Made by a program: the position numbers and the translations under genes. This document shows positions 17,678 to 35,159 of a DNA stretch of 64,000 nt, piece by piece (positions within the stretch are counted from its first letter, which is position 1; each line of letters opens with the position of its first letter). This DNA is from a virus. Below the pieces are notes generated by a model, which made no database searches, had not been told where the DNA came from, and was given only the letters and a program-made list of their open reading frames with translations. Location of the stretch: the IMG/VR virus record IMGVR_UViG_3300028608_000007, positions 1 through 64,000 of that record. One strand, 5' to 3'.

Positions 17678-20191
17678 ATGGCCGCGACCTATACTTACCC
17701 ATTTGACCCCACCGGTTCCGCGACTACGAACGCCGTTGCAAACGAGCGGCACGTACTGTCACCCCCGGCGTGGACAGACTTTTACTTCATCGTTCCGAAG
17801 TATGCACCGTACTTCCGGGACTCGCTCCGGGTAATCCATCGTCCTTCCGGCAAGCTGTTGGTCGAAGGGCAAGATTACCACTGCACCCACTACTTCCACG
17901 CAGCGTCTCATGGCGTGGCTCGTCGGGTGTATGGTTCGATCACGTTCCTCGATAAGACCCTCACCGGTGTTGCCGAGATCAGTTATCAGACCATCGGTGG
18001 CGACTGGATTCTGGATGCCTCGGCTGACCTCACTCGTCTGACGAACACCCAGCTCAACCCGCGCATCACTACTTGGGAACAAGTGGTCGACGTGCCGTAT
18101 CAATTCCCACCGATCGATCACGAGTGGAACCTGGAAGACCTCAAGGGCGTTGAAGCCATCCTCCCGATTCTGGAAGAGATGACTGAAGCTATCCGTGAGT
18201 CGGCAGGTAGTGACTTCGCGCTTCACATCAACGATAAGAACAACCCTCACAACGTCACTAAGGCGCAGGTAGGGTTGGACCAAGTTCAGAACTTCCCATT
18301 GGCGAACATCACCGAGGCCCAACAGGCCACGTTGAACACTCGCTACATGACGCCTGTTCGCACCAAGAACTTTGTCGACTTCTACGTTGTACCGTTGATC
18401 GACGCTCACAAGAACGACCTCAACAACCCGCACGGTACGACCAAGGCGCAGGTTGGCCTCGGAAGTGTCCAGAACTACGGTATGGCCACCCAGGCCGAAG
18501 CCGAAGCTGGTCTGGTAGCCAACAAATACATGACCCCGCTGCAAACCAAGCAGGCGATTGAAGCGTTGGCAAACTCGGGTCTCACCACCCACATTGCGGA
18601 CAAGAACAACCCTCACGGCACCACGAAGGCCCAAGTAGGTCTGGGGTCCGTAGAGAACTTACCGCTGGCAACTGTTGCAGAAGCCGAAGCAGCTTCGCGT
18701 AACGACCGCTACATGACTCCGCTGACTACTGCGGCAGCCATCAACACCTTGGTCGGTGAGTCCCTGACTCTCCACATCAACGCTACCAACAACCCGCACA
18801 TGGTCAACAAGGCTCAGGTAGGTTTAGGTAACGTCTTGAACTATGGCATCGCAACCGATGCTGATTCGGCTGCGGGTACCCGCAACGATCTGTACATGAC
18901 GCCGTTGCAGACCAAGAAGGCTATCGAGTCGCTGGCCACTGGTTCCATCGCAGCTCACTTGGCAGATGACCAGAACCCACACGCCACTACCAAAGCACAA
19001 GTTGGTTTGGGTAGCGTGCAGAACTTCCCAATCGCAAACACGACGGAAGCTCAACTGGGTGAGTCGAACTCTCGCTATATGACCCCGCTGATGACGGCTG
19101 CGGCTATCGAAGCGCGTGTTGGTGAGACGGGTGTGGCTACTCACATCTCGGACTACAACAACCCACACCGGGTGACTGCTGCTCAAGTTGGTGCTCCTAC
19201 TACCGCTGCGATGAACACTGCGCTGCTGAGTAAACTGGATGCTACCGCTCAGGCTGCTGACTCCAAGTTGCTGGAAGGTCAAACGGTTGCACAGATCATC
19301 GCGGCTGCTGGTGGTGTGAAAGCACCTGACTCGGCTAAGCTCGATGGTAAGACCTACGCGGAAGTTCTGGCTGCTGCTCAGGCTCAGAAAGCTGCCGACA
19401 GCTTCAAGCTGGAAGGTAAGACTCTGGCTCAAGTGATTGCCCAAGCGAACGCTGACGTTGGTAAGCAGGATGTGGCTGTTCAGTACTCCTTCCCAGAGAT
19501 TCCATCTGGTGCTACCAACTGGCTTCAACTGGCACGCACGAACTACCTGCCTACCGACGAGCCTCAAGACTTGGTTCTGTTGATCGCTGGTGGTGGTCGT
19601 ACCGATGGTACTGCCGAAGCGCATCCGACCATTCTGGTTCGTATGGGTTACGCAGGCGACACCATTGAAGTCACCATGCTGAGCCAAGGCGTCCTGCCGA
19701 CGTTCGAGCTGTATCGTCAACCTCTGGCTGGCGGTTTCGGTGCTCTGTGGGCACGTACCACTGTGGGTTGCTACCCGCTCAACGTGACGGTCCTGTCTGG
19801 TAAAGGAAACCTCGTATACGACACCAGTGTCGATCCGACTACTACTGTACCGGCTAGTGCTGTGAAGGCTACCTTCCTGCTCCGTGCCGATCAACGTGAA
19901 GGCAGCACCAAGGTCATTCACGAACAGGTCAGCGTAGCAGCCGGTGCGTGGAAAGAATACGCGTTGAAGACTTACATCGACACCGCTGTTCACAACGTTC
20001 CTGGTACTGAAGTCCGTGTGCGGATTCTCGACCAAGTTGCAGGGTCCCCGACTCTGAACCAACTGATCGACGCCGAAGCGCTCGTGACCACGTCGTTGGA
20101 TCTCACGGCTGCTGCTCCGAAGGCTCGGATCTACAACGCCTCCTCCACTGCCTTGACCCTGAACATTCGGGTAGAGGTGCCTCGTACTTAA
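17678..20191 (+). CDS. Tail fibre protein 1
   Basis: N-terminal YPFDPTG baseplate-attachment-like domain, six NPH..TKAQVGL shaft repeats, distinct C-terminal domain. Confidence 0.85.
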   Translation: MAATYTYPFDPTGSATTNAVANERHVLSPPAWTDFYFIVPKYAPYFRDSLRVIHRPSGKLLVEGQDYHCTHYFHAASHGVARRVYGSITFLDKTLTGVAEISYQTIGGDWILDASADLTRLTNTQLNPRITTWEQVVDVPYQFPPIDHEWNLEDLKGVEAILPILEEMTEAIRESAGSDFALHINDKNNPHNVTKAQVGLDQVQNFPLANITEAQQATLNTRYMTPVRTKNFVDFYVVPLIDAHKNDLNNPHGTTKAQVGLGSVQNYGMATQAEAEAGLVANKYMTPLQTKQAIEALANSGLTTHIADKNNPHGTTKAQVGLGSVENLPLATVAEAEAASRNDRYMTPLTTAAAINTLVGESLTLHINATNNPHMVNKAQVGLGNVLNYGIATDADSAAGTRNDLYMTPLQTKKAIESLATGSIAAHLADDQNPHATTKAQVGLGSVQNFPIANTTEAQLGESNSRYMTPLMTAAAIEARVGETGVATHISDYNNPHRVTAAQVGAPTTAAMNTALLSKLDATAQAADSKLLEGQTVAQIIAAAGGVKAPDSAKLDGKTYAEVLAAAQAQKAADSFKLEGKTLAQVIAQANADVGKQDVAVQYSFPEIPSGATNWLQLARTNYLPTDEPQDLVLLIAGGGRTDGTAEAHPTILVRMGYAGDTIEVTMLSQGVLPTFELYRQPLAGGFGALWARTTVGCYPLNVTVLSGKGNLVYDTSVDPTTTVPASAVKATFLLRADQREGSTKVIHEQVSVAAGAWKEYALKTYIDTAVHNVPGTEVRVRILDQVAGSPTLNQLIDAEALVTTSLDLTAAAPKARIYNASSTALTLNIRVEVPRT
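18242..19200 (+). repeat. 61-aa (183-nt) tail-fibre shaft repeats
   Basis: NPH motifs at 18242, 18425, 18608, 18791, 18974 (183-nt spacing) and 19160. Confidence 0.9.
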
Positions 20192-20199
20192 GGTGACAT

Positions 20200-23184
20200 A
20201 TGGCTAACCTGTCGTTAAGCGTTGCTCCGGGGTACTACCTCGAGGCGCAACATGCGGATTGGGTGCTTAGCTCTGAAGTTGACTTCATTAGCTTTGCGCT
20301 CAATGGCGCACAACCCGCCCTGTCGAAGTACATCGCTTACGACACCCTGACTCCGGCTAACCCCTTCATTGCGGTAACGGAGGACGGGAACGGTCGTGTG
20401 GTGTACGATGGTGGGTTCCCTAAGTTCTACAACTCGTTTGCACCGACAGCGGGTCTTGATCCGCTGTTCAGCTTGGAGTTCCGTGGGACCAAAGACAGTC
20501 CTGGCGCTGATGGTAACGCCTACTACTACGACCTGTTTTCAACTGTTGCGGTAACAATCGCAGCCGGTGACAAATTGGTGTACGACATCTGGTGTAACAG
20601 TCCAGATGCTCGTGTGGGGGTGGACGGCATCACCAACGCTACGATCATCAATGGTCCTCCATTCCTGTACTCGCTACGAGACTGGAAGCAGCAAGGAAGT
20701 GTGCTCAAGGATCAGAACGGAATCTCGATCCACCCAGCGTCAGACCACTCAGCTTATTCAGCGAACAAGTGGTACCACCGGGAGTTCGATCTGACCCAAG
20801 CGGCCGGATACCAGTTCATCAAATGGAGTTTGGCATACGAAGGTGAAACGAACGGGGTGTTCTACACTCGGTTCAAAGAGGTCTACGTCATTGACAAAAA
20901 CGGTAAGGTGAAAGCCACGCTGTTCAAAGACCGGATCACTATCCCTTCGGGCACCCCAAGCTACCCCGGCGCTTCGGGTTACTCGAACATCTCCACTGGC
21001 ATTTACGATCCTCGTAGCAACCTCTCGGCGGCTTTCAAGTATCTGTTCAATGCCATTCGCTGGGTGTCGAAGAAGAGCCTTGAAGAGGCAGGTACCAAGA
21101 AGATCCTGATCTTGGGCGACGCCTCGCTGGCTGGTACTGCCAACTACCGGATCAAAGGTACTGGTAACGGTGATTTCAATACCAGTCTAACTAACCTTTG
21201 TACTGCTGTTGGGTTTACCCCTACATTTAAAGACGTGTCGGACTATAGTGGCGGTTTGCTTAACGCCACGTTGGCCGAGATGAATCAGTACAACTGTGTG
21301 TTACTGATGGGTTCTCAGAGCGGTACGTCGGCACTGATCACCACGTCAATGATCCAAGATATCCAGACATACCGCCAACAAGGTGGTGGGATCATCATGA
21401 TCACCGACCACGGTAACGATATTGCGACCATTGGTAATGCTTATCCTCCTGCGAGTGGTGTAGCGTTCTTCCACTTGGTTAACGCCGTGGCGGTGAACTT
21501 TGGTGCTTGGTTCTCAGGCAACTTTGACCGGACGCCTGTTAACGTTGGGTTCCTTCGCACCAACTATGGTGACCACCCCTTGTACGATGGGATGACCAAT
21601 GCTGAGTCAATCGCTGCGGGCACTTCTGAGTCCAAGGTGATCGTCAGTAACCCACCTCAGTATCGTCCTCCGATTGCGGGGATCGATATCACCCAGCAAG
21701 GTGTGAACACGGTCCGTGTAATGGCGTCGTTGAAAGACGGCACCATGGAAGCGTACAGCTTTGTTTACGTGATCGCCACGGGTCAGTTGATCGTCTTCCG
21801 TGATCCAGAGGGCACTGAGATCAACGCGTTGCCAGCCTCCTTGAGTTCTAAGGTGGACTTCAACGTTGAGTTGATCGGTGCAGGTCTGGGTACGTTGGTG
21901 GGTGATGTTCGTCTCAACGGGAAGACGGTAGCTCAGCTTTCCTTCGACACCACTGACGGTTCTGTGCAGAAGTGGATTGGTGGTGGGTCTAACCAGCTCT
22001 TCGTTAATAAGGGTGATGTCTTCGAGGCTCGGATCACCAGTCCGTTCTCGTACGCGCGTAACCTTCCGGTAAACCGATTGGTACCTAGCCTTGTGGGTCT
22101 GCGTAAACTCCCTGACGTTGTTAAGGAATTGCGTGGCAACGGATTCAGCACCAGTAAACCGAAAGAGACGGTACTCGACGCCGTGAACTACATGACGCGT
22201 GAATTCCCAGCCTTGGGGTACACGCCGAAGGGTGACTACGCTCGGGACATCGCTCAGCTCCAAGGGTTCTGGGGTTCAGAGCCGACTAAGCCGGATCAAG
22301 GTGTTTACATCTATCCGACTTTGACTGCTGCCCAAGAAGCCATGGGGCGGTTGTCTCCACCGACTCCCCAACAGGTCTTCAACACATGGGACCGTTTCAC
22401 CAGTAACGAGTACTTCGTTGGTGGTGTGGGAGCTACTGGGGATGCGGCAGCTTGGCAGTGGAACGACTCCTTGGGTGCTGCGGTACAACCGTTGAACACT
22501 GCGTCGTGGAACGGTTTCATCTCCCCTGACGTGGTGGACAGTTACGAGCTGGACGTGGTGATTAAGTCGGATAACGCCGACGATGACACCAACGGTCTCG
22601 TGTTGGCCTTCAACCGCCAGAACAACATCAACCACCGACTGATCTTGGCGTTGAACCAAGGTGGTAACACACCTGCGGCTTCCCACTCGATCGGCCTTTA
22701 CAGTACGTCCACGCAACATTTGGTCTTGAATGACTTCGCTGGGCGTAAGTCCAACGCGGCGTTCCCGACTGATGGTGGTTGGCGAGGTAAGTTCAGCCGT
22801 GTGAAAGTTATACGGTCAGGCAACTACTTCAAAGTGTTGGCTAGTCAGTGGAACTCGTTAGTCTTGGACCCTGCGTCCTTGATGGAGTTGACACTGGACG
22901 ATTCCGCACTCCAGGCTCAGTTTAAAGGGCCTAAAGCATGGGGCTTCATCAACTACTCCCAGTCTCAGTCGTACTTCACTCTGCGCAGTTACAAAGGCGG
23001 TCCTTTGAAGGACGTCGTCGTGGTGGCAGCTACCGGAGCGGTGTACTTCTACGGTTCCAATGGGTGGGAGTTGATTGCAGGTACTACTGCGAAAGATGTC
23101 TTCGGATACCCTCGTAAGTTGACTAACCCCGAAACTGGTGCGTCGTTCATGGTCAACGCGAACGGCACGATCACAGCACTTTGA
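20200..23184 (+). CDS. Large tail-fibre-associated / receptor-binding protein
   Basis: 994 aa between two fibre genes; beta-rich modules, C-terminal DDDTNGLVLAF lectin-like motif. Confidence 0.65.
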   Translation: MANLSLSVAPGYYLEAQHADWVLSSEVDFISFALNGAQPALSKYIAYDTLTPANPFIAVTEDGNGRVVYDGGFPKFYNSFAPTAGLDPLFSLEFRGTKDSPGADGNAYYYDLFSTVAVTIAAGDKLVYDIWCNSPDARVGVDGITNATIINGPPFLYSLRDWKQQGSVLKDQNGISIHPASDHSAYSANKWYHREFDLTQAAGYQFIKWSLAYEGETNGVFYTRFKEVYVIDKNGKVKATLFKDRITIPSGTPSYPGASGYSNISTGIYDPRSNLSAAFKYLFNAIRWVSKKSLEEAGTKKILILGDASLAGTANYRIKGTGNGDFNTSLTNLCTAVGFTPTFKDVSDYSGGLLNATLAEMNQYNCVLLMGSQSGTSALITTSMIQDIQTYRQQGGGIIMITDHGNDIATIGNAYPPASGVAFFHLVNAVAVNFGAWFSGNFDRTPVNVGFLRTNYGDHPLYDGMTNAESIAAGTSESKVIVSNPPQYRPPIAGIDITQQGVNTVRVMASLKDGTMEAYSFVYVIATGQLIVFRDPEGTEINALPASLSSKVDFNVELIGAGLGTLVGDVRLNGKTVAQLSFDTTDGSVQKWIGGGSNQLFVNKGDVFEARITSPFSYARNLPVNRLVPSLVGLRKLPDVVKELRGNGFSTSKPKETVLDAVNYMTREFPALGYTPKGDYARDIAQLQGFWGSEPTKPDQGVYIYPTLTAAQEAMGRLSPPTPQQVFNTWDRFTSNEYFVGGVGATGDAAAWQWNDSLGAAVQPLNTASWNGFISPDVVDSYELDVVIKSDNADDDTNGLVLAFNRQNNINHRLILALNQGGNTPAASHSIGLYSTSTQHLVLNDFAGRKSNAAFPTDGGWRGKFSRVKVIRSGNYFKVLASQWNSLVLDPASLMELTLDDSALQAQFKGPKAWGFINYSQSQSYFTLRSYKGGPLKDVVVVAATGAVYFYGSNGWELIAGTTAKDVFGYPRKLTNPETGASFMVNANGTITAL

Positions 23185-23199
23185 TAAACAGGAAAGGTT

Positions 23200-24828
23200 A
23201 TGGGCACTATCATTGTTAAGTACCCTGAAGACCCAACGGGGATCAACCCCAACAACCTGGTCATCAACGAGCCTCACGATCTTGGAGCAGGGCGCAATCG
23301 CGCCTTTGTTCCTAACTACGGTTCCTACTTCACGGAATCGATGATCGTTACTGAGGCTGCGACCGGGCGGGTCCTCACCAAGGGTACGCACTACATCGCT
23401 GCACAGTTGCAACAAGAAGCCACTCTGGCGATGGACAAAGAGATTTGTGCCGTCGTTGTCATCACTGACCCGAGTGTACAGGACCAACTGTTGTTCACCT
23501 ACCAAGTTGTTGGTGGTGTGTTCAGCACGTCGGTCTCCGCGTTGCAGAAAATGATCGAAGACCTCGATCTGGACGAGCGGGCTGTTGAGTGGGGCGCCAT
23601 CATTGGTAAGCCTACTGCTTTCCCACCTGCTCCTCACCTCCACGATATCGGCGACCTGTACGGTTTCGAATACCTCGTGGAAGCACTGGATGCGCTGCGT
23701 AACGCCATCTTGATCGGTGACGAAGCTGCGCACGATGAACTGCGACAGTACATCCAGTACGAAGACGGGTTGCTGCGGGCAAGCATTGCTGAGCTGAAAG
23801 GTCAGTTCGATGCTCACGCCCAAGACAAGAACAACCCGCATGGTACTACCAAAGCTCAGGTCGGACTTGGTTCGGTCGAGAACTACGGTATCGCTACCAC
23901 TGCCGAAGCCCAAGCAGGTACTTCCAACGCGAAGTACATGACTCCTCTGCGTACGGCCGAAGCGATTGCTCAGCAAGCGTTGATTCCTTTGAACGCACAC
24001 ATTGCGGACAAGAACAATCCACACCAAACCACTAAAGCCCAAGTTGGCTTGGGTAGTGTGGAGAACTACGCGATTGCCACCACGGCAGAAGCGCAGGCCG
24101 GTACCAGTGACGTGAAGTACATGACGCCTTTGAAAACCAAAGACGCCATTGCCCAACAAGCACTGATCCCCCTGAACAACCACATCGCCGATAAGAATAA
24201 CCCCCACCAGACCACCAAGGCACAGGTTGGGTTAGGTTCCGTTGAGAACTACGGCATTGCGACGACCGCTGAGGCTCAAACGGGTACCAGCGATATCAAG
24301 TACATGACTCCGTTGAAGACCGCACAAGCGATCTCTCAGCAGGCTCTCGTACCGCTGAATGCTCACATCGCTGACAAAGGTAACCCTCACGGTACGACCA
24401 AGGCGCAAGTGGGCTTGTCGGATGTGGACAACTTCGCAACAGCTACTCAGGCTGAGGCTCAGGCTGGTGTGCTGAACACCAAGTTCATGACGCCGCTGCG
24501 AACTGCGCAGGCTATTGCCCAGCAAGTGGGGAACACCCTGACGGCTCACATCAACAACCAGTCGAACCCTCACAACGTGACCAAGTCGCAGATCGGTCTA
24601 AGTCTGATTCCGAACTCGATCACTCGTAGTCGGGCTACCAACTCTGACGGTTCGTTGCTGACGGCTGGCGGTATGTACGATCACGTGAACTCTGCGGACC
24701 ACGATGCTCGTTACGCTCCGAAGAACACGGCAGGCGTTGACTGCTCGGTTCACTGGAACGGTGCAGGTGTGTACGTCTGGGGCGGTGGTGCATGGCGTCA
24801 AGTGTGGCCTGCTCAGTGGGCTGCGTAG
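23200..24828 (+). CDS. Tail fibre protein 2
   Basis: N-terminus paralogous to fibre 1 (YPEDPTG), five NPH motifs, short Trp-rich C-terminus. Confidence 0.85.
   Translation: MGTIIVKYPEDPTGINPNNLVINEPHDLGAGRNRAFVPNYGSYFTESMIVTEAATGRVLTKGTHYIAAQLQQEATLAMDKEICAVVVITDPSVQDQLLFTYQVVGGVFSTSVSALQKMIEDLDLDERAVEWGAIIGKPTAFPPAPHLHDIGDLYGFEYLVEALDALRNAILIGDEAAHDELRQYIQYEDGLLRASIAELKGQFDAHAQDKNNPHGTTKAQVGLGSVENYGIATTAEAQAGTSNAKYMTPLRTAEAIAQQALIPLNAHIADKNNPHQTTKAQVGLGSVENYAIATTAEAQAGTSDVKYMTPLKTKDAIAQQALIPLNNHIADKNNPHQTTKAQVGLGSVENYGIATTAEAQTGTSDIKYMTPLKTAQAISQQALVPLNAHIADKGNPHGTTKAQVGLSDVDNFATATQAEAQAGVLNTKFMTPLRTAQAIAQQVGNTLTAHINNQSNPHNVTKSQIGLSLIPNSITRSRATNSDGSLLTAGGMYDHVNSADHDARYAPKNTAGVDCSVHWNGAGVYVWGGGAWRQVWPAQWAA
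23827..24600 (+). repeat. 61-aa (183-nt) near-identical shaft repeats
   Basis: KNNPH(G/Q)TTKAQVGLGSVENY.IATTAEAQ.GTS..KYMTPL.T unit, about four copies; first two start at 23827 and 24010. Confidence 0.9.
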
Positions 24829-24884: not shown

Positions 24885-25394
24885 ATGGGTAATGTGAGTA
24901 GTGGTTCTTTATTCCAATATATCACAGAGTCTACCCTAAGGGTAGACGACATCCTTAGTAGTCCTTACCCCTTTGAGCAACAGCTTGTAAAGATTCTCAA
25001 CAAGGGCATTGTCATCGACGCTCTAAGTGCTTCGGATGTATTGGAGCACTCTGATAAGGTCATCAAGATTGAAGGAATGGAGAAACTCTGTCCAGTCCTG
25101 TTCAAGGCTTGCAAAGACCTGGCAGAAGTCATGGAACATGATGGGCCTGTAACTTGCCATCTGTTCCTGTCTCCTGTTGGGGGCAAGAGCTTCCCAACAC
25201 ACACTGATCCTGACGACGTGTTTTTGTACATGGTCAGTGGTATGAAACACATGGCGGTCAATGACAACGTTAAACTGCTCACCGCAGGAGACTCGTTGTT
25301 GATCCCTCGGAACACACCCCACAGAGCACACAACCTGAACGCCTCGAAGATGTTGAGCTTTGGGTTGGAACGCTTTATTGTTGAGAAGCTCTGA
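24885..25394 (+). CDS. JmjC/cupin-family hydroxylase
   Basis: HLFLSP.GG.SFPTHTDPDDVF (HxD) ... GDSLLIPRNTPHRA (distal His). Confidence 0.75.
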   Translation: MGNVSSGSLFQYITESTLRVDDILSSPYPFEQQLVKILNKGIVIDALSASDVLEHSDKVIKIEGMEKLCPVLFKACKDLAEVMEHDGPVTCHLFLSPVGGKSFPTHTDPDDVFLYMVSGMKHMAVNDNVKLLTAGDSLLIPRNTPHRAHNLNASKMLSFGLERFIVEKL

Positions 25395-26428
25395 TGACCA
25401 AGACTATCTACGTCAAGACCACTGGCAGTTGCAACTTGAACTGCCAGCATTGTTTCACCGGAGGCCGTAACGGTGACCGGACACAGTTCGATCCCCAGCA
25501 GTACGGGGATTGGATTGAGGACTACATGTCCAAACATCCTCGGGGGACTCAGTATCACCTTGAGTTCCACGGGGGTGAACCTTTCCTTGTGCCGTTAGCC
25601 AAGCTTACAGAGTTGGCTGATCGGTTCTTTGAGCGGGAAGGGGTGTCGATGTGTGCGAACAGTAACCTCACGTTCAAGATCACAGATGACATCCTTGCCT
25701 TTATCCAGAAGTATTTCTACGGCCACATTGGTACGAGTTGGGACCACTGGATTCGCTGGAGTAATCAAAAGCAATTTGATCTCTGGCGCTCAAATCTTTC
25801 TATGCTCCGCGAGCACGGAGTATGTATTTACTTAAAGGTGTCTGTCAGTCGGGAGTTGATCAACACCACGGCTGATTGGTTCTTGGATCAGATCGAAAGC
25901 TTTGGGGTGAGTGAAGTCTCCTTGGAGCGGTTGACCTGTGATGGCAATGCCAAAGAGAATATGGACATCTTCCCAGACAACGAGGCGCAGGACAACTGGT
26001 ACCTCGAGCTGTACAAGCGTTACAAGCAACGCAAGCCCAAAGTCAAGATCCGCACCTTGGACATTCTCGAAGAGAAGCTTAAGTACAACGTGGTGGCTGT
26101 GGATACCAACTGTCGCAACTGTGAACAGAACTTGGTGACCATGAACTCCAACGGGACCTTAGGCGGTTGTCCAAACGTAGCCTCTGCTCGAAAGCACGCA
26201 CGTTTAGAACAGGGGGCTGATGCATTCCTGAACTCCGAAGACCGAGTGTCCGAGATCGCTAAGGAACTGACGTGGGGTGATGGTTGCCTTAATTGTGACG
26301 TCTTCGATTTATGCGGTGGCGACTGTCACCGATTGCCTTGGCAGCAAGGTCGCTGTGGCGGCTTGAAGAATACGCTGAGGTATCTGTCGGGACGTTCTAC
26401 TCAGTCCAATTTGATTATCAAGGTGTGA
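25394..26428 (+). CDS. Radical SAM/SPASM protein 1
   Basis: CNLNCQHC, FHGGEPF, C-terminal CRNC..CP..CLNC..C.GDC..C auxiliary-cluster cysteines. Confidence 0.92.
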   Translation: MTKTIYVKTTGSCNLNCQHCFTGGRNGDRTQFDPQQYGDWIEDYMSKHPRGTQYHLEFHGGEPFLVPLAKLTELADRFFEREGVSMCANSNLTFKITDDILAFIQKYFYGHIGTSWDHWIRWSNQKQFDLWRSNLSMLREHGVCIYLKVSVSRELINTTADWFLDQIESFGVSEVSLERLTCDGNAKENMDIFPDNEAQDNWYLELYKRYKQRKPKVKIRTLDILEEKLKYNVVAVDTNCRNCEQNLVTMNSNGTLGGCPNVASARKHARLEQGADAFLNSEDRVSEIAKELTWGDGCLNCDVFDLCGGDCHRLPWQQGRCGGLKNTLRYLSGRSTQSNLIIKV

Positions 26429-26429
26429 A

Positions 26430-26984
26430 ATGACGGACGTAACAAGACAGAGCGTCGCTGACTTATTCAACGGCGTCGTGCGTGCCAACGCCAACGCTGG
26501 TATCTCGTGGGGCAACAACAACTATCCTGCTGGTGCTCTGGCAGGTTGGTTCGGTGGCTCCACTGGTGGTTTGGCCTTAGCAATGGGTGCTGGTGACATT
26601 GCTGCGGGTAACCTCTCCGCTTCTAACGTAGCTGCTGTGCTGCGTAACTTCACTAACCAGTGGTCTGCTATCCGCCGTACGCGCATCGTGATCTACTACG
26701 CGTGGAACAGTGGTGAGGACTTTGTCAACTCTGGTGTGAACGTGCAGTATGATGGTACAGCCATTGCCTATACTGCGTACCCGGCTGGAGCGCCTGGTAA
26801 CAACGCAGCATTGCCTGGTCTGGCTCAAGGGGCTAACGTCTCTTACAGCAACATGCAGGCGTGCGTGAATAACCTGTGGGGTCAGTACTACGAGATGTGC
26901 CGTAACACCACCCTGACTCTCACCAACACTGTCTGCCACACAAGCTGCCACGACAACTGCCACTGTGCACGCGGTCGTCGTTAA
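26430..26984 (+). CDS. Gly/Ala/Asn-rich protein with C-terminal CHxxCHxxCHC motif (candidate radical SAM substrate)
   Basis: 184 aa; all six Cys in last ~40 aa; ends CHTSCHDNCHCARGRR. Confidence 0.75.
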   Translation: MTDVTRQSVADLFNGVVRANANAGISWGNNNYPAGALAGWFGGSTGGLALAMGAGDIAAGNLSASNVAAVLRNFTNQWSAIRRTRIVIYYAWNSGEDFVNSGVNVQYDGTAIAYTAYPAGAPGNNAALPGLAQGANVSYSNMQACVNNLWGQYYEMCRNTTLTLTNTVCHTSCHDNCHCARGRR

Positions 26985-26995
26985 GGAGAACCCCA

Positions 26996-27739
26996 GTGGA
27001 TAAACCCACCGTCATTGTTGAAACCGTAGCACCCATTCCGCTGGACGTCCTCAAGCGTAAGTTCACCGAAGATATCGAGTTCCATATCGACTACGAGAAC
27101 TCCAGGCTCAAGGGTAAGGTGTTGATCACCTACCTGTCGAACTTGAAGATCAAGTGTCGGTTGATCTTGAATGATCGCGAGACTACGTTGCTGTTGATCC
27201 AAGAGTACCTGAACATTCCGGTACTGGTCGACATGCCTGACCTCGCAGACCACGCCATGAACATGCTGTTGGATTACACCGGCAAGCCAAGTACGGTAGT
27301 GGGTGATCTGGTTGAGTTCTACACGTTCAACCGCGAGATCCTGAACACGTGGGTGCGTCGTCTGTACTCGATGCCGCTGTTTGCCATGTACTGCATGGGC
27401 GACCAGTATCACGAGTACGTCGAAGGTTTCCCGAAAGATGAAGAAGATAACATCGCTGGTATCAACTTCGTCAACCTGCTGCGTCATCCCTTGTTTGCAG
27501 TAATGCTCGAAGGGGTAGAGGAAGACCAGTACACTTGGAACCCTGTGTTCTTCAAGGAGTACATCTTCCAGGGCAACAACCTGTTCCACTATTTCGCCGA
27601 TCGCAACAACCCGCTGTTCATGGGTGTGCTGGCGCTCCAAGACCCTGAGTCGTTCAAGGCTTATAGCACCGCTCTCGCAAACGAGGTGCGTGACTCCCAA
27701 GCCCTTCTGAAAGGTATCGGTTATGTACCATCTCTTTAA
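26996..27739 (+). CDS. Hypothetical protein in radical SAM cluster
   Basis: GTG start with GGAG RBS, 247 aa, overlaps next gene. Confidence 0.7.
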   Translation: MDKPTVIVETVAPIPLDVLKRKFTEDIEFHIDYENSRLKGKVLITYLSNLKIKCRLILNDRETTLLLIQEYLNIPVLVDMPDLADHAMNMLLDYTGKPSTVVGDLVEFYTFNREILNTWVRRLYSMPLFAMYCMGDQYHEYVEGFPKDEEDNIAGINFVNLLRHPLFAVMLEGVEEDQYTWNPVFFKEYIFQGNNLFHYFADRNNPLFMGVLALQDPESFKAYSTALANEVRDSQALLKGIGYVPSL

Positions 27740-28778
27740 CTCGGTGTACGTGGACTCTGAACGCCGTGTCATGCGTGACGTGAATAACATCACCATCTCG
27801 CCTCACATCGGTTACGAGTACTTCCCTGGCCCGAACGAGAAAGCCGGTCGTCAGATTGGTTACGCTCGTACACTCGATGAAGTCGAACCAGCGGTGCTGA
27901 TGGGTTGGCTCAAAGAAGCCATGCTGTCGGAAGAGAAGACCTTCATCTTCTGTGATGGTCCGACCTACCTGCGGCTGTACACCATGCTCGTCAAGTGTCT
28001 GGTGCCTCAGATCGACCTCGAAACTTTCCGCTGGGTTTGGCTGTGCAAGAAGGCTACCTTCAACACGTCCCTGACCAACTGGAAGCAGCCAGGTAACAAC
28101 GTCCTTGAAGGCGTGGTGATCAACAACGAGGTCATCCTCGATCTGGCTGAGTTCGAAGACCCGCTGCAAGGCCCGTTCAACGAACTGATGGCTGGCGATG
28201 ATGAAATCGTATCGCTGGAATGGCACATCTTCCGTCTGGCGGCGGTGGGCTACACTGGCATCGTACCAAAGCGTCTGAAGAACATCCTGCGTCGTATCGC
28301 TCTGGCGAACACTCACGATGCACTGGACGTTTGGGGTCGTGTGATCACTGATCCGTCGAACTGGGAATACGCTGGCGCTGATCTGGACACTCTGCTGAAT
28401 GCCCCATCGGTATTCGAAGGTGCCTTGAACATGCACTACACCAACAATCCGATCTTCTTGAAGCCTGGGCTGTTCGTGAAGTTCCCACAAGACCAGTGGC
28501 TGTGCAACCTGCTCGAAGAACTGCAACCGTTGCTCGAACGCATCGGTGAAGGTCCAACGGCTAAGCGGACGACCAAGATCCTGATGTTCTTGCAAGACCG
28601 CAATCCGCTGAATGATCCTGGTGCCTGCTTGCAGCGCTGCCGTGACATCTTCACTGGACCTGACCGCCTGGCCATGCCAAACCGGGACTCGAGCAAGTAC
28701 GACGAGAACCTGATCCGTTACATCCTAAGTCGTGACCAGAAAGATCTGGCGCGCATGTTTGAAGGGGCAACTTGGTGA
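27723..28778 (+). CDS. Hypothetical protein in radical SAM cluster
   Basis: 351 aa, overlaps both neighbours. Confidence 0.7.
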   Translation: MYHLFNSVYVDSERRVMRDVNNITISPHIGYEYFPGPNEKAGRQIGYARTLDEVEPAVLMGWLKEAMLSEEKTFIFCDGPTYLRLYTMLVKCLVPQIDLETFRWVWLCKKATFNTSLTNWKQPGNNVLEGVVINNEVILDLAEFEDPLQGPFNELMAGDDEIVSLEWHIFRLAAVGYTGIVPKRLKNILRRIALANTHDALDVWGRVITDPSNWEYAGADLDTLLNAPSVFEGALNMHYTNNPIFLKPGLFVKFPQDQWLCNLLEELQPLLERIGEGPTAKRTTKILMFLQDRNPLNDPGACLQRCRDIFTGPDRLAMPNRDSSKYDENLIRYILSRDQKDLARMFEGATW

Positions 28779-29785
28779 ATCTAATCCCGGTGGTAGACGT
28801 ACTCGCTGAGAAGAAAGGGCCGACGAAAGAAGCGCACTTGATCCTCTTCGAGAAATGTAATCTGCGTTGCTCGTTCTGCCACCAGGACCACGATTCTACC
28901 GTTGGTCTTGATGCTGAGGAGATCATGCGTAAGGGGATCAAGCTCGTTGAGCAATCGGACCTCGAAGCACCGATCGTAATCAACATCACTGGCGGCGAGT
29001 TGTTCACGGACGACATCGAAGACTGGATGTTTGGGTACTACCATGCGCTGGGTGAGTACCTGTTGAATAACTTCAAGCGTGTCAAGTTGGTCTACGGGAC
29101 TAACTTGGTGTACGAAAACGTGTGGCGCGTTGAACGCATGATGATCATGCTGAACAACCTGTGCGACAAGGACAAGCAGGAAGTTGTCTTAGCGACGTCA
29201 TACGACCCCGCAGGCCGGTTTAACCCAGCCCAGCGGGAATTGTTCTTCAAGAACTTGGATCGTGTTGGCATGTGGGTCGACACGGTAAACGTAGTGATCA
29301 CGAGACAGAACATCGACGTCTTCCTGAACGACCGCGAGGGCGTTGAGGTGAAAGATCTGGCGTACGACTACGATCTGTATTTTGATCATTACATACCAAG
29401 CGAAAGATATGAAGAGCACCAACCTACCGAGTCACAGATCCGTCAACTGTATTTGAAGTTGGCTGAGCGGTATCCTAACTCGTATCCCATAAAAGCCTGG
29501 AAAGAACAGCGCTTTAATGACACGACCTGCCGTTCCACCAAGATCATCAACAAAGATGGTGTGGTGACTACGTGTTGGTCGGAAGCGGGTAAGGATGCGG
29601 TCCTCGACGAAGGGCAAGGGTTGGCTGCGAAACATGCGGCTGAAGAACGATTCATCGAACACTACGGGTGTCTGTCGTGTGAGTATTACCAACGCTGCGG
29701 TTTGCGTTGCTTCCTCCACCACAGCTTTATCGAAGGCTCTTCCAAAGAGTGCGAGATCAAGCTCCTGTTCGACGAAATCTTGTAG
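28772..29785 (+). CDS. Radical SAM protein 2 (with C-terminal Cys cluster)
   Basis: CNLRCSFC, TGGELF, C-terminal CLSCEYYQRCGLRC..C. Confidence 0.92.
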   Translation: MVNLIPVVDVLAEKKGPTKEAHLILFEKCNLRCSFCHQDHDSTVGLDAEEIMRKGIKLVEQSDLEAPIVINITGGELFTDDIEDWMFGYYHALGEYLLNNFKRVKLVYGTNLVYENVWRVERMMIMLNNLCDKDKQEVVLATSYDPAGRFNPAQRELFFKNLDRVGMWVDTVNVVITRQNIDVFLNDREGVEVKDLAYDYDLYFDHYIPSERYEEHQPTESQIRQLYLKLAERYPNSYPIKAWKEQRFNDTTCRSTKIINKDGVVTTCWSEAGKDAVLDEGQGLAAKHAAEERFIEHYGCLSCEYYQRCGLRCFLHHSFIEGSSKECEIKLLFDEIL

Positions 29786-29839: not shown

Positions 29840-30931
29840 GTGAACCTGATTATTAAGCCGACTGTCAACTGTAACTTCAAGTGTACGTTCTGCTCGAGCA
29901 CACACTTGTCAGAAGAGGCTAAGGACATCGTCGAGTTGGAAGACATTGAACGCTTCCTCGTACGCTACCCTGAAACCCAAACCATCATTGTTAACGGTGG
30001 CGACCCTCTGATGATGCCCCCTAAGTACTACTGGGACATGATCGCAATCCTCGACCGTCTGGAGATGGATAACTGTACGATCTCGTTCACCACTAACCTC
30101 TGGGCGTTCCACAAGAAGCCCGAGCTGTGGACTGAACTGTTCCGCCACGAACGTATCGGCGTAACCACCTCGTTCCAATACGGTGACAAACGTCTCAAGG
30201 GAGACCGAACCCCGTTCACCGAGAAAGAGTTCCTTGAGATCTCTGACCAGTTCTTGGAGCTGGTAGGTTATCGCCCTGACTTCATTGCGGTGATTGACCA
30301 AGACAACGTTGACTCCGTCATGAACACCGTGAACCTTGCTAAGCTCCTAGGGATCGAAGCGAAGATCAACTACGTGTCTGCCTCAGGACCTGAGGTGAAC
30401 AACCGTGGTGTGATCATGGGGAGCATCAACAACTTCTACACCCAAGCTGACATGTACGAACAGTATGTGGCGATCTATGATGCAGGTTTAGGGGAATGGG
30501 AGTACAACACCAAACAGATGGCACGCCGTTTGAAACACGGTAACACCACGTGTCCTCTGTCTCGTAACTGCGACTCTGGAATCCGTGCACTCCAACCGGG
30601 TCGTAACTACTACTCGTGCGGTAGCTTCGGCGATGATGGCGAATACCCTATCTCGTTTGAAGCCGAAATGCAGGGTCAGTTCTTTACCCCGCTGCAAGAA
30701 GCGTTTGAAATCGACACGATGAAGAACGCGTGTTACGAGTGCCCGATGTTCAGCATTTGTAATGGTTGCCGCAAGACTATCGCTGACACCAAACGGTTTG
30801 GGTTGGTTGAACACCATTGCAAGAAGATGAAGTCCCTCGCTCCACGTATCATCGAGATCAACGGAATGGCTGGGTTGATTGAACCCACCCCGTACGTTGA
30901 TGAATCCGTCCAGATTATCGCAAGAGGTTAA
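29840..30931 (+). CDS. Radical SAM/SPASM protein 3 (anSME-like)
   Basis: IIKPTVNCNFKCTFC, NGGDPL, CPLSRNC..C..CYECPMFSICNGC. Confidence 0.92.
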   Translation: MNLIIKPTVNCNFKCTFCSSTHLSEEAKDIVELEDIERFLVRYPETQTIIVNGGDPLMMPPKYYWDMIAILDRLEMDNCTISFTTNLWAFHKKPELWTELFRHERIGVTTSFQYGDKRLKGDRTPFTEKEFLEISDQFLELVGYRPDFIAVIDQDNVDSVMNTVNLAKLLGIEAKINYVSASGPEVNNRGVIMGSINNFYTQADMYEQYVAIYDAGLGEWEYNTKQMARRLKHGNTTCPLSRNCDSGIRALQPGRNYYSCGSFGDDGEYPISFEAEMQGQFFTPLQEAFEIDTMKNACYECPMFSICNGCRKTIADTKRFGLVEHHCKKMKSLAPRIIEINGMAGLIEPTPYVDESVQIIARG

Positions 30932-30932
30932 C

Positions 30933-31349
30933 ATGACTGTAGTAGTGAATGAAAACGTAACACTGATCAGTGGACCACTCGACAGTAGCGGTGGCGGTAC
31001 AGATTACCACTGCTGTCACCTCGATGGCGAACCACTGGTTGATCAGGTAGAACAGTTCAACGGCAAGAACATCACTGTGCGTTACTGGGTTAGCAGTACC
31101 CCACTGACCAGCGTGGAAGAAGCCGACGAACAAACCCTGAAACAGGTTATGGGTTTCCTCGACGCCGATATCAGTCACAGCTACTCCGACGTCACTGGGT
31201 ATCTCTGGACCGACGAACACTTGAAGGTCGGTGGCCACAACGTCCTGGAGGAAATCTGGGAGCTGTGTAACAACGGTCGTTGGGTTGACGGCAAGTACGT
31301 AGACATCTACCTCCTGATGGAAATCACGGTCCATGAAGAGCCCAATTAA
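30933..31349 (+). CDS. Acidic hypothetical protein in radical SAM cluster
   Basis: ATG at 30933 after GAGG gives 138 aa; overlaps next gene. Confidence 0.65.
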   Translation: MTVVVNENVTLISGPLDSSGGGTDYHCCHLDGEPLVDQVEQFNGKNITVRYWVSSTPLTSVEEADEQTLKQVMGFLDADISHSYSDVTGYLWTDEHLKVGGHNVLEEIWELCNNGRWVDGKYVDIYLLMEITVHEEPN

Positions 31350-32292
31350 CCTCAGTGTTAACCTCACCTACTACTGCAACTTTAAGTGTGGGTTCTGTTA
31401 CCTCACGCCAGAGCAGTTGAGAGACCGCCAACGCCTTCCGTTAGACCTACTCGAGCAAAGACTCGATGAAGTCATGGCGCAGTACGAGATCCACCACGTT
31501 GACCTTTACGGCGGTGAGGTCATGGTGCTGCCGAAGGAATACTTGTTCGAGGTTCGTGACATCCTCCACAGTCGTGGGATTGATGACATCGTACTGGTAA
31601 CCAACGGTTCCATCATGAACGAAGTCACCGCATGTGAAGACTTCGATTTAACGGTCTCCTACGACCTCTCTGCACGTGAGAAGAGCGATCAGGTACTGTC
31701 CAACCTCTTTATGCTCGATCGGCCTTATACGCTGCTTACGCTGGCTTCCAGAGCGTTCTTGGATACCGTTTCGGTAGACGACTATGTGAACGAGCTGAAT
31801 ATGCTCAATCGCATGAAGTGTGCTGAGATAAAACCGTACTCCACCAACCAAGCTAACCAACACCGGGTCTCGTACAAAGAGTATGAAGACTTCGTGTGGG
31901 CTGTGATCACTCACCCTAACCGTCAGTTCTATTTTGAGAACCGTACACAGGTGAAGGAAGCGGTTGAAGGTGTGCGTAATGCTTACAGTGACGATCACTT
32001 GTACATCACCCCTGAGGGTGAGTTTGCAGTGCTGGAGTTCGATCACAAAGACCATGAGTTCTTCTTGCGCATGGATTCGTTACATGACTACCGTAACTGG
32101 TGTCAGGTTGAGCGATTCCGCGTAGAAGGCAATCTGTTCTGCGGCGCGTGTCCTTACAAAGGAAACTGTCTGTCGGAACACTTACGCGATGTGAAGTCCT
32201 TGGACAACTCCTGTAACGGGTTCCGAGGACTCTTAGACAGGTGGGCTGAACATGCAAGTACAACACCGACAGCGCCTGGAGATCACCCTTGA
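31333..32292 (+). CDS. Radical SAM protein 4
   Basis: CNFKCGFC, YGGEV, C-terminal CGACPYKGNC..C. Confidence 0.92.
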   Translation: MKSPINLSVNLTYYCNFKCGFCYLTPEQLRDRQRLPLDLLEQRLDEVMAQYEIHHVDLYGGEVMVLPKEYLFEVRDILHSRGIDDIVLVTNGSIMNEVTACEDFDLTVSYDLSAREKSDQVLSNLFMLDRPYTLLTLASRAFLDTVSVDDYVNELNMLNRMKCAEIKPYSTNQANQHRVSYKEYEDFVWAVITHPNRQFYFENRTQVKEAVEGVRNAYSDDHLYITPEGEFAVLEFDHKDHEFFLRMDSLHDYRNWCQVERFRVEGNLFCGACPYKGNCLSEHLRDVKSLDNSCNGFRGLLDRWAEHASTTPTAPGDHP

Positions 32293-33268
32293 CATCTTTC
32301 GAGGGTGTGGTCACTCCTGTGCAGGCTGCATGATTGACAAACAACTAGGGGGTGAGGTTTCAGACATCCCTGAGTTGCTGCTGTTGATCCAAGAGATGGA
32401 AGCTGTGGGTTACGTACCCTTTGACTTAGGTGTCGGACCTACAGACTACATGACCTCGAACAACGTACAAGACGTGATGGGCAACGAGACCTTCCAAGAG
32501 ATGGCTCAGTTGTTCCATCAGGTGACCTTCAACGCTGCGTTCTTGGAAAAGGATCTGGACAAGTACTCCGAGATGTGCCAAGACATTGATCTGGCGTGTC
32601 CCGGTAAGCCTATCCGGTTCCTCATTCCAGCAGCCCCCACCTTCTTCAAGAACGACAAGTTTGGCAACATGATTGAAGCCAAGCTTAATCACTGTAAAGA
32701 AGCTTTCCAGTCAGCCTTCTTGAATGAGGCAGGCTTTGTCGTAACGTGTAACCATGAGACGATGGATGAGAACTTCGACCAGTTGATTCGACGCGGGATG
32801 GATGTTGAATTCCCAGTGGACAAAGACGACATCCTCAACATTCCGTATGGTCGCTCCAAGAACCTGGACCTAATGGTGTCTCAACGGGTCTTACGTGTCT
32901 CCCACGCCATCAGTGAGTTCTATGCAGGGCTTTCTGGTGAGGACGAGCGTCGTCGTAACCCTGATTTGCACTACGACACAGGGACGATGGTTAACTTGTT
33001 GTACACAGGTGGGAAGCTGTATTGGGTTCCCTTCCTTAAAGACGACTGTCCGTTCATTCACGACGAGTTTGTGATCCCAAGGCCCTGGACTATGTCTAAC
33101 CTCTTGCGCGTGCGTAACGAGGCTATGGAGCGTTCTGTAGAGTACCTCAAAGATACCAAGTGTCTTGAGTGTGTACACTTCGCTAGCTGCATGGAGAAGG
33201 GCATCAGCACCATCATGCAGAAGCTGTCGATTCGTGATTGCTTGGTGGGCTTAGATCATGTTTCCTGA
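32252..33268 (+). CDS. Divergent radical SAM-like protein 5
   Basis: CGHSCAGC (CxxxCxxC) near N-terminus, C-terminal CLECVHFASC..C. Confidence 0.75.
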   Translation: MQVQHRQRLEITLDIFRGCGHSCAGCMIDKQLGGEVSDIPELLLLIQEMEAVGYVPFDLGVGPTDYMTSNNVQDVMGNETFQEMAQLFHQVTFNAAFLEKDLDKYSEMCQDIDLACPGKPIRFLIPAAPTFFKNDKFGNMIEAKLNHCKEAFQSAFLNEAGFVVTCNHETMDENFDQLIRRGMDVEFPVDKDDILNIPYGRSKNLDLMVSQRVLRVSHAISEFYAGLSGEDERRRNPDLHYDTGTMVNLLYTGGKLYWVPFLKDDCPFIHDEFVIPRPWTMSNLLRVRNEAMERSVEYLKDTKCLECVHFASCMEKGISTIMQKLSIRDCLVGLDHVS

Positions 33269-34295
33269 GCTGATCGGCATGTCCTTAAACCTGAACCTTG
33301 AGATCCTCACCGGGTGTGGGTTCAGTTGTCCTGGCTGTACTGTGGAGAAGAACTTTGCACCGTTCGAGTTACCAGCCGCCGATACACAAGCGCTCGAAGC
33401 TTTCGTACTCGACCTCCGGGCGCAACAGTGGAGGCTCCTCGAGTTCAAAGTCGGGCCCACTGATATTTGTAGTTCTGATAACGGCTTTGCTGCTCTGGGT
33501 CACCCATTAGTCAAAACCTTGGCTCAACATTACAAAGCGTTGAACATCAACCTTGCGATGTTGAGTACTCGAGGCTTTGAAGAGTTAGCGCCGTTGCTCG
33601 ATGCGTTGATGCCCGGTAAGAAGCTCTCTGTGACGGTTCCAATGACGTTGAAGAACATTGGTAACCCAAAGTACCGGGCTGTGTTGAAAGAGCATGTAAC
33701 GTACTTTAAGAGCCTTCTGAAAGAGGTGGACTTTAACCGGGTGTACGCAGGGTTCAACGTGGTCGAGGAAAACCTCACCCACTTGGATCTTGAACACTAC
33801 GAGTTAGCCCACACACTGGACCTAGGTAACGTAGGGATCGTGGTGGAGTTCCCGTTTGCTCACTCACGCCAAGGGTTCAACAACCTCTTGAACGTCGAGA
33901 AGTTCAAACGTGATCTGGCGGTGTACTCTGAGTTCGCTAAAGCGCGAGTCAACACTCAGATGTTCCGTCCTTTGCAACCTGCGATCTTGGAAGGTTTTGA
34001 ATTCACGTACCGAGGCGGTAGTTTGTACACCACTCCGGTACTGATCGAAAACTTCCCAATCTTCCATCCTGACTTTGAGTTACCCAGACCATGGACCTCC
34101 GAGTCTGTATTAGCTTACAAACAGGAGAGATACTACGATAACCTGATCGAGTATGCCGAGCACCCCGAGTGTGGGAATTGCTGTTTCCTCGATCATTGTG
34201 CACGCGGTGACGTCCATCGCATCATGAAACTGATTGGGAAAGACACATGTCTGACAAACACCCGCAATCGGAGCGACCTGTTAATCCCGGAGTAG
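33258..34295 (+). CDS. Divergent radical SAM-like protein 6 (paralog of protein 5)
   Basis: CGFSCPGC, VGPTD, C-terminal CGNCCFLDHC..C. Confidence 0.75.
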   Translation: MFPELIGMSLNLNLEILTGCGFSCPGCTVEKNFAPFELPAADTQALEAFVLDLRAQQWRLLEFKVGPTDICSSDNGFAALGHPLVKTLAQHYKALNINLAMLSTRGFEELAPLLDALMPGKKLSVTVPMTLKNIGNPKYRAVLKEHVTYFKSLLKEVDFNRVYAGFNVVEENLTHLDLEHYELAHTLDLGNVGIVVEFPFAHSRQGFNNLLNVEKFKRDLAVYSEFAKARVNTQMFRPLQPAILEGFEFTYRGGSLYTTPVLIENFPIFHPDFELPRPWTSESVLAYKQERYYDNLIEYAEHPECGNCCFLDHCARGDVHRIMKLIGKDTCLTNTRNRSDLLIPE

Positions 34296-34741
34296 AGGGT
34301 AACTTCCCCATCATCTTGGACTATATCAGGTTCCCAGAAAACCTTCCTGACCTAGCTCTCTGTCAAACCAACAAAGAGTTTATCACGGACCCTGAGATCA
34401 ACGACTACGTCACCACCCATCTCTTGTCTCAAGTGCGCGAGAGGGTAAAGGTGGACGAAGGTTACGAGCTACATGCTTGCGCCAATCACGTTCATATCGG
34501 CGACCAAGGGATCAACATCCACGATCATCAACCTCACGCTCTGACGTCTGTCCTCTTCTTGACGCAGTCTGATGGCATGCTGGTCTTGCATGAAGATCCC
34601 GTCACTCCTGGTCAAGCTATCAAGCCTAAACCGGGACGCTTTGTAATCATGAAGGGAACCACGCTCCATCAAGTATTCCCTTCTCCCATGCCTGAACTTC
34701 GAATTACTTTGGTGTCCAACTATGAATGTCGCCGTCCATAA
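34247..34741 (+). CDS. Putative 2OG-Fe(II) oxygenase
   Basis: IHDH...SVLFL...LHQV...RITLVSN (HxH..H..R) double-stranded beta-helix pattern. Confidence 0.65.
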   Translation: MSDKHPQSERPVNPGVEGNFPIILDYIRFPENLPDLALCQTNKEFITDPEINDYVTTHLLSQVRERVKVDEGYELHACANHVHIGDQGINIHDHQPHALTSVLFLTQSDGMLVLHEDPVTPGQAIKPKPGRFVIMKGTTLHQVFPSPMPELRITLVSNYECRRP

Positions 34742-35159
34742 GCAGTATCAAGAGTTGTACGCCTCGGTTGTCCAAGAACACTCTGACGACTTCTCGAAGA
34801 TGTTGTTTGTTGAAGACGGAGAGTTGGTGGAGAACGCCAAGCAGTACTTCCTCAAGGCTGAGTTCCCGTTGATCTATCCAGCCAAGTCGATGGCAGTAGC
34901 AGTGATCTACGCTCTGTTGCTGGAAGAGACCTACGCGATCAATCCGTTTGATTCGTTGAAGGACCCTGACTTGTTCTTAGGACAAGACCCCTACTTCGAA
35001 CCGTATGACAAACATCCGAATGAGTACGACCAGTTGCTCGAGTGGGTACTCAGCCATGACAACTGGAAGGAGCTAGGTTGGGCTCCGAAGACCTGTGAGT
35101 ACTTCCGTTTGGAGTGCACCGCAGAAGGCATTCAAGAAGTGATGGAGAACCTCGGATGA
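34722..35159 (+). CDS. Hypothetical protein in radical SAM cluster
   Basis: 145 aa, overlaps both neighbours. Confidence 0.65.
   Translation: MNVAVHKQYQELYASVVQEHSDDFSKMLFVEDGELVENAKQYFLKAEFPLIYPAKSMAVAVIYALLLEETYAINPFDSLKDPDLFLGQDPYFEPYDKHPNEYDQLLEWVLSHDNWKELGWAPKTCEYFRLECTAEGIQEVMENLG

Follow-up and report, generated by a model that had tools for sequence, protein, structure and literature searches.

Within the window, the 64,000-nucleotide stretch of viral DNA analysed here, a gene at 26430..26984 (+ strand) was found to encode a 184-aa protein that is the founding member of a family of Cys-His-tailed, fibre-associated proteins. The protein consists of an alpha/beta body (approximately residues 1-168) and a C-terminal (C-H-x-S/N)3-RGRR tail (26934..26984, +) that is the proposed target of modification. 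It is likely, with a probability of about 0.6, that this is a fibre-associated virion protein with a covalently matured, and probably cross-linked, tail.

Cys residues are located at positions 145, 157, 169, 173, 177 and 179 and His residues at 170, 174 and 178, and the triple C-H-x-x repeat followed by RGRR occupies 26934-26981, exactly where the original prediction had placed it. The repeat is not a chance arrangement: none of 200,000 residue shuffles reproduced the pattern. The three units of the window protein comprise one H-x-S, one H-x-N and one H-x-A. As also predicted, all six Cys are confined to the C-terminal part (145-179 of 184), and residues 1-140 contain no Cys and are rich in Gly, Ala and Asn (44% combined). 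Charged residues number 12 in this region (8.6%; the family averages 14%), hence the low charge that had been described stands but the wording 'nearly uncharged' was mildly too strong. The claim that the tail is borne by a folded body was supported by AlphaFold, which gave a confident alpha/beta body (mean pLDDT 87, pTM 0.80) and a tail modelled at low confidence (block pLDDT 51 and 45) that includes a low-confidence helix at residues 174-179. No hydrophobic N-terminal signal was seen by eye.

A profile scan with the tailed protein matched 131 viral stretches, and the family has 177 representatives at 50% identity, with 32 close relatives of the window protein. The bodies of members diverge to ~25% identity, and nearly all of the near-invariant columns belong to the tail. 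In 230 of 251 tailed members the C-terminal end is made up of three C-H-x-x units followed by R-x-R-R, a fraction that is an upper bound as the searches favour tailed sequences and the member set was partly selected on the tail. In these 230, the fourth position is Ser in 218 (unit 1), Ser or Asn in 224 (unit 2) and Ser, Ala or Asn in all 230 (unit 3). His is as invariant as Cys, and the tail consensus can be read as a Cys-prefixed His-x-Ser repeat. Of the six-Cys core originally proposed, the three repeat Cys are therefore family-wide, but C145, C157 and C179 are only lineage-specific, and in 148 of the 251 members the sequence before the tail is free of Cys. The additional Cys at 179 is found in 35 of 230 members and is accompanied by a body Cys in 33 of the 35, compared with 64 of the 195 members that lack it. 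A disulfide involving C179 was considered and rejected, as no fixed partner Cys was seen in the family alignment, and this residue was treated as lineage history. Members with a folded body are 170-450 aa in length, and those in twin-copy loci 125-140 aa.

No PDB match for the 184-aa protein was found by sequence profile or by structure (best Z 4.4; no Foldseek E <0.001), and there was no match to PHROGs or NCBIfam. Feature matches in the ESM Atlas had scores of <=0.82 and were uninformative. A sub-threshold Pfam match to Glyco_hydro_45 (20.8 bits, cut-off 27) was rejected as compositional, being without support from the fold searches. Among predicted viral structures, Foldseek matched a 178-aa protein with the length and identity of the orthologue in the phage pPa_SNUABM_DT01 (DT01), gp170 of phage Atu_ph07, an uncultured phage protein and three 500-660 aa proteins of one myovirus.

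Several variants of the tail were observed. Expanded tails, in spaced blocks, occur in L020:10001-10684, L121:6012-6716 and P0034 (11 Cys-His units). The RGRR end is absent in one lineage (L097:10001-10948; L074:10001-10573), in which what follows the four units is either an S74 chaperone or a short, Gly-rich stub resembling a chaperone remnant, and only two radical SAM (rSAM) genes are in view. A chromosomal member (L204:9562-10170) has a re-spaced Cys/His tail that is off the 4-residue period and retains RGRR. Tandem twin copies of the tailed gene were found at L090:6062-6879, L201:6016-6776 and L202:1846-2681 and in L167, L175 and L206; some copies are only 125-140 aa, and in T4-like contigs they are directly behind a 2,000-aa fibre gene. 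Three twin-copy loci belong to one Rhodobacteraceae bin, probably binned phage.

The source virus record is 180.5 kb in length and estimated to be 65% complete. Gene order in the window matches that in the phiKZ-like Pseudomonas jumbo phage pPa_SNUABM_DT01, with genes for SbcC, a baseplate spike and fibres followed by a cassette that includes the tailed gene. The cassette genes are tightly spaced, all on one strand, and follow two phrog_2163-type fibre genes. The upstream genes encode a tail-fibre-type virion protein (17678..20191, +), a 994-aa virion structural or fibre-related protein (20200..23184, +) present in 3 of 53 relatives, and a paralogue of the first tail-fibre-type protein (23200..24828, +). 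The last of these has a short Trp-rich C-terminal tip, is 56 nt before the cassette and is a candidate docking partner.

Core status was assessed in the 53 loci with full flanks. The first cassette gene encodes a small JmjC/cupin Fe(II) oxygenase-like protein with a conserved H-x-D...H motif (24885..25394, +; core, 52/53). It is followed by genes for rSAM/SPASM enzyme 1 (phrog_1802; 25394..26428, +; core, 53/53), which is directly upstream of the tailed gene in 78 of 78 cases, and a 247-aa core protein (phrog_20767; 26996..27739, +; 53/53), directly downstream in 78 of 78. Beyond these are genes for a 351-aa core protein (27723..28778, +; 50/53) and for rSAM/SPASM enzymes 2 (28772..29785, +; core, 52/53), 3 (29840..30931, +; core, 53/53), which is the most conserved, and 4 (31333..32292, +; core, 52/53). 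A 145-aa core protein (34722..35159, +; 49/53), a 2OG-Fe(II) oxygenase (35114..35716, +; PF13759, 39.8 bits) and its paralogue (35719..36273, +; PF13759, 27.5 bits) complete the set. The accessory genes encode two paralogous atypical CxxxCxxC proteins, protein 5 (32252..33268, +), found mostly in the phiKZ-like lineage, and protein 6 (33258..34295, +), as well as a 2OG-Fe(II) oxygenase-like protein (34247..34741, +).

The atypical CxxxCxxC pair (32252-34295, +) tracks the phiKZ-like fibre context, protein 5 being present in 20 of 21 such loci and in 2 of 46 others, and is probably a lineage-specific add-on. A 156-aa ORF between the genes for enzymes 3 and 4 (30879-31349, +) was seen in 1 of the 53 full-flank relatives and could be assigned to no family. 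Some cassettes contain a B12-dependent radical SAM gene and extra oxygenases (L100:16420-17985), and in phages RSL2 and RSF1 (L082/L084) dihydrofolate reductase genes and GIY-YIG/HNH nucleases are inserted within the cassette.

The link between the tailed protein and the enzymes was near-absolute in both directions. The tight radical SAM linkage that had been predicted was confirmed, as homologues without rSAM neighbours were sought and rSAM genes were present in 80 of 80 viral loci retrieved with the tailed protein alone. In the opposite direction, a tailed ORF was found in 61 of 62 loci retrieved by enzyme 3 that had the genes for enzyme 1 and the 247-aa protein in view; the sole exception has only a second enzyme 1 paralogue, and its upstream view ends at the 10-kb limit. 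These sets overlap and include some near-duplicates, and the members fall into 141 clusters when their bodies are grouped at 50% identity.

The core cassette (the cupin, the four rSAM enzymes and three other families) was found in phiKZ-like phages, T4-like phages and Bdellovibrionota chromosomes, usually beside fibre or adhesin genes. Among cultured phages, the cassette enzymes are encoded in 15 records, namely DT01, the RSL2/RSF1/FLC/S13 group, Atu_ph07 and Phosso, and in all four cultured phages inspected the gene after that for enzyme 1 bears the tail. RSL2 gp68 and RSF1 gp71 share the tail and the position and were counted as positional members only, because their bodies were not significant against a tail-less profile. 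Jumbo-phage-like DNA was also encountered in bacterial assemblies, in a 4.3 kb Dysosmobacter segnis contig (L086) and in a 241,743-bp contig labelled Streptomyces (P0002).

Sampling of 401 genomes from the phylum to which one Pseudobdellovibrionaceae genome belongs identified the tailed family in 15. In Bdellovibrionota the cassette is located among housekeeping genes on contigs of up to 2.8 Mb and includes the same enzymes in shuffled order, and the link between the tailed protein and the enzymes persists despite this shuffling. In five Bdellovibrionota loci, a protein that combines a pilin-type methylation motif with an S74 domain is encoded <=10 kb from the cassette, and about half of the inspected loci have no adhesin neighbour within 10 kb. 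One further partner protein is common to 8 of 16 inspected loci (two from the same genome) and had no detectable relation to the fibre tip in the window. A family of 185-220 aa with a conserved Trp-containing C-terminus was seen beside Bdellovibrionota cassettes (L091:6588-7199, L203, L204, L206-L209 and L211); by eye it is like a G2-type chaperone domain, and it had no Pfam or PHROG match.

A fibre- or adhesin-like virion role, as originally suggested, was supported by the fibre context, by fusions to fibre domains and by the detection of a homologue in the virion proteome of Atu_ph07. The cassette has three fibre settings, beside phrog_2163-type fibres, Peptidase_G2-ended fibres or N_methyl+S74 adhesins. 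In many T4-like loci it is located right after a gene for a protein with a C-terminus resembling a Peptidase_G2 chaperone and tail-fibre families. In one member (P0119), encoded within a normal cassette, four tail units run straight into Peptidase_S74 (E 1.5e-11). S74 domains ensure fibre trimerisation and cut themselves off (PMC10769870), and this fusion implies a trimer in that lineage. Another member (P0099) is fused to Gly_rich_2 (E 7e-11), a glycine-rich tail domain, and a weak PA14 insertion, below cut-off, was seen in P0146.

Atu_ph07 gp170 shares both the cassette position and the tail of the window protein and is homologous to it without the tail (tail-less profile, 27.7 bits; Foldseek E 5.6e-6, TM 0.52). 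It is present in the Atu_ph07 virion proteome, with 8 unique peptides and 35% coverage, and the cassette enzymes (gp165-169, 171 and 172) are absent from the listing (PMC6102473 Table S5), the virion evidence thus being for one remote homologue in a PEG-purified preparation. This 31.9 kDa protein was most abundant in gel slice 1, the top of the gel (PMC6102473). Among 25-37 kDa virion proteins with >=2 peptides, counted from the same source (PMC6102473 Table S5), 2 of 33 peak in the top slice and 31 of 33 in slice 5 or lower. As the particles were PEG-purified and the described loading buffer names no reductant (PMC6102473), the gel points to an SDS-resistant form of gp170 but does not tell the type of bond, and disulfides or a heat-stable trimer could be the cause. 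Atu_ph07 has capsid whiskers (PMC6102473), and Burkholderia phage S13, which is flagellum-dependent (PMC11898562), carries the cassette enzymes. The site of the tailed protein could be a flagellum-dependent attachment structure in S13 or the capsid whiskers in Atu_ph07.

Enzymes 1-4 each include a CxxxCxxC motif and, towards the C-terminus, conserved Cys clusters; all four match phrog_1802 (E 1e-31 to 1e-53) and are assigned to the radical SAM/SPASM superfamily by sequence. Only enzymes 3 and 4 reached the Pfam Radical_SAM gathering score. For enzymes 1 and 3 the highest-scoring curated models are maturases of peptides or proteins (anSME, AmcB, PapB, YhhB and DynA), at about a tenth of cut-off, and those for enzymes 2 and 4 are mixed, including viperin and MoaA. 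The nearest solved structures to enzyme 3 are anSME, MoaA and 5v1q. These enzymes are new families, rather than orthologues. No relatives of enzyme 3 were found in plasmids. The 351-aa protein was modelled confidently (pLDDT 94), and its N-terminal domain (27723-28160, +) is weakly like dual-specificity phosphatase folds, several at Z 4.4-5.0. The Cys in this domain is not conserved, and the domain is possibly a pseudo-phosphatase scaffold. No PDB match was found for the 351-aa family by profile or structure, or for the 247-aa family by profile, and no relation between the two families was detectable.

[quoted passage not shown] 2026, PMC13128918), and an rSAM-dependent change of +8 Da occurs on one His-x-Ser repeat of folded HxsA, for which the His and Ser are essential (PMC13128918). 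In both systems a folded protein with tandem His-x-Ser units has genes for several rSAM/SPASM enzymes next to its own, and an HXS-type unit is present as the first unit (H-x-S) in 218 of 230 members. However, here a Cys precedes each unit (period 4) and the repeats are C-terminal and end in RGRR, whereas the HXS effector has a signal peptide, N-terminal HxS repeats and a peptidoglycan-binding domain. The tailed protein had no HxsA or peptidoglycan-binding match and no evident signal peptide. Oxygenases are also present here, and the setting is virion or predator fibres and not periplasmic defence. The best cassette scores were 26.3 bits against HxsB (TIGR03978; cut-off 370) and 18.6 bits against HxsC (TIGR03977; cut-off 267.9), and HxsD (TIGR03976) had no match among the cassette proteins tested.

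Triceptide maturases join an aromatic residue, which may be His, to the one two positions further along. The H-x-S/N unit fits this geometry, though the motif is too short to be diagnostic. Three of the AmcB, YhhB, FxsB and GrrM models were among the top five for enzyme 1, and these models scored 45.3, 40.4, 32.7 and 21.9 bits against cut-offs of 425, 445, 370 and 310, respectively. Triceptide substrates are short exported peptides, in contrast to the 184-aa folded virion-type protein studied here. A Cys-repeat substrate with rSAM/SPASM enzymes is also shared with sacti/ranthipeptide systems and protein thioether maturases (PapB, AlbA, CteB and QhpD), of which QhpD cross-links a protein subunit. 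The original prediction had drawn the sacti/ranthipeptide comparison, and this found no support, as the enzymes are far below the family cut-offs (bits/cut-off: PapB 44.9/340, AlbA 18.2/850, CcpM 19.9/500 and QhpD-type 19.8/453) and the invariant His of the tail is not part of sacti/ranthipeptide motifs. Precursors of that type are short leader-core peptides, whereas the family described here has folded bodies, and the cassette enzymes could not accommodate an N-terminal RRE/PqqD domain because the cluster motif starts within the first 30 residues. Judged by these profiles, the system is not a member of the HXS, sacti/ranthipeptide or triceptide families.

On the structural side, the family is like S74-chaperoned phage fibres, gp38-type tip adhesins and Bdellovibrio MAT fibres (PMC10769870) in being fused to, or encoded beside, S74 or G2 chaperone domains of trimeric surface fibres. 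However, no solved structure of a fibre or adhesin was found to share the fold, and the MAT fibre paper, in which the word 'radical' does not occur, describes no enzyme-maturation cassette (PMC10769870).

Under the favoured reading, the 184-aa protein would serve, probably as an oligomer, as a structural subunit in a fibre or adhesion appendage of the phage, and its low-confidence C-terminal (CHxS/N)3-RGRR tail would be, as originally proposed, the substrate of the surrounding enzyme cassette. In the infected cell, the 247-, 351- and 145-aa proteins may hold or present the subunit, while the four core rSAM/SPASM enzymes would take H atoms from tail residues and covalently join either the ring of His or the sulfur of Cys to the beta-carbon of Ser/Asn or to an adjacent chain, and the cupin and 2OG oxygenases would add hydroxylations. 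The matured protein would then enter the particle without the enzymes, and the links would stabilise the appendage or form a binding surface. His-x-Ser/Asn would fit a three-residue cyclophane geometry, and Cys would allow thioethers. We infer a trimer and its docking on the upstream fibre, as well as the modification of the tail, its chemistry and its purpose. A tail that is the substrate on a body that is a fibre or appendage subunit is the most economical reading. It would account for a tail that stays fixed when adhesin-type insertions enter the body, for an enzyme link that persists when the fibre family or the host kingdom changes, and for the lack of the enzymes in particles. At least 10 genes is a lot for a 16-residue tail, and therefore some of the enzymes may have other targets.

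The original prediction had offered a Cys/His metal site in a trimeric tip as an alternative. It is unlikely that the tails of an oligomer instead bind a metal, Fe-S or other cofactor via stacked Cys/His rings, with the cassette making, delivering or inserting the cofactor and no cross-linking of chains. T4 fibre tips have His-x-His iron sites, and three Cys-His units, with equally invariant Cys and His at 4-residue spacing, would be an excellent ligand set. The low-confidence helix at 174-179, the trimer implied by the S74 fusion in one lineage and the expansion of the repeat to at least 11 units in P0034, which suits a modular ligand stack, are also consistent with this. However, the conservation of Ser/Asn in each unit and the presence of four distinct conserved rSAM/SPASM families and oxygenases point to C-H chemistry, and we know of no fibre-tip metal site that requires dedicated enzymes.

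Phage rSAM and 2OG enzymes often serve nucleotide modification, and the enzymes might act on the upstream fibre, a glycan, a nucleotide or a host molecule, leaving the tailed protein as a co-regulated structural or scaffold subunit kept together by disulfides. The DT01 paper assumes a DNA-repair or metabolic role for the enzymes, without a test, and the accessory genes vary, including the B12-dependent gene in L100. This is improbable, as lineages differ in the family of the upstream fibre but retain the tailed gene with its tail unchanged, and bacteria that have this tail encode the cassette on the chromosome. The RiPP-like enzyme set, the conserved core at the extreme C-terminus and the tandem copies in some loci would suit a body that is a leader or carrier, from which the modified 16-mer is released as a RiPP-like small molecule (toxin, signal, metallophore or anti-defence agent). 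However, the body fold is conserved and well predicted (pLDDT 87) and accepts adhesin-domain insertions and fusions, a homologue (Atu_ph07 gp170) is found in particles, and no protease or exporter was identified among the core genes, of which three families lack an assignment, making such a carrier very improbable.

Virion proteins are generally held to mature by proteolysis, disulfides, autocatalytic cross-links or glycosylation. If the favoured reading of a covalently matured tail is true, it would represent a radical-SAM maturation pathway for a particle protein, found in no paper searched, and His-x-Ser chemistry would then be known on folded proteins of two systems, this one and HXS. Targeted searches of the literature found no description of the cassette, and the FLC6, S13 and DT01 papers only list the enzymes. 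Under both the covalent-maturation and the metal-site readings, the substrate family, the enzyme families and the biological role would be previously undescribed, with the chemistry put forward as a proposal. Four new rSAM/SPASM families and three unknown protein families are represented in the cassette, together with a candidate substrate without a clear PDB fold match, and the system is testable in the cultured phages Atu_ph07, RSL2, RSF1 and pPa_SNUABM_DT01, and probably in FLC6 and S13. More tentatively, a dedicated pathway of at least four radical SAM enzymes and Fe oxygenases, common to unrelated large phages and predatory bacteria, may furnish the tail of a fibre subunit with novel covalent cross-links through His/Cys or with a novel protein-derived cofactor, so that subunits are joined into an appendage that resists SDS and grips bacterial prey. 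The location of Bdellovibrionota cassettes beside adhesins suggests a prey-attachment device common to phages and predatory bacteria.
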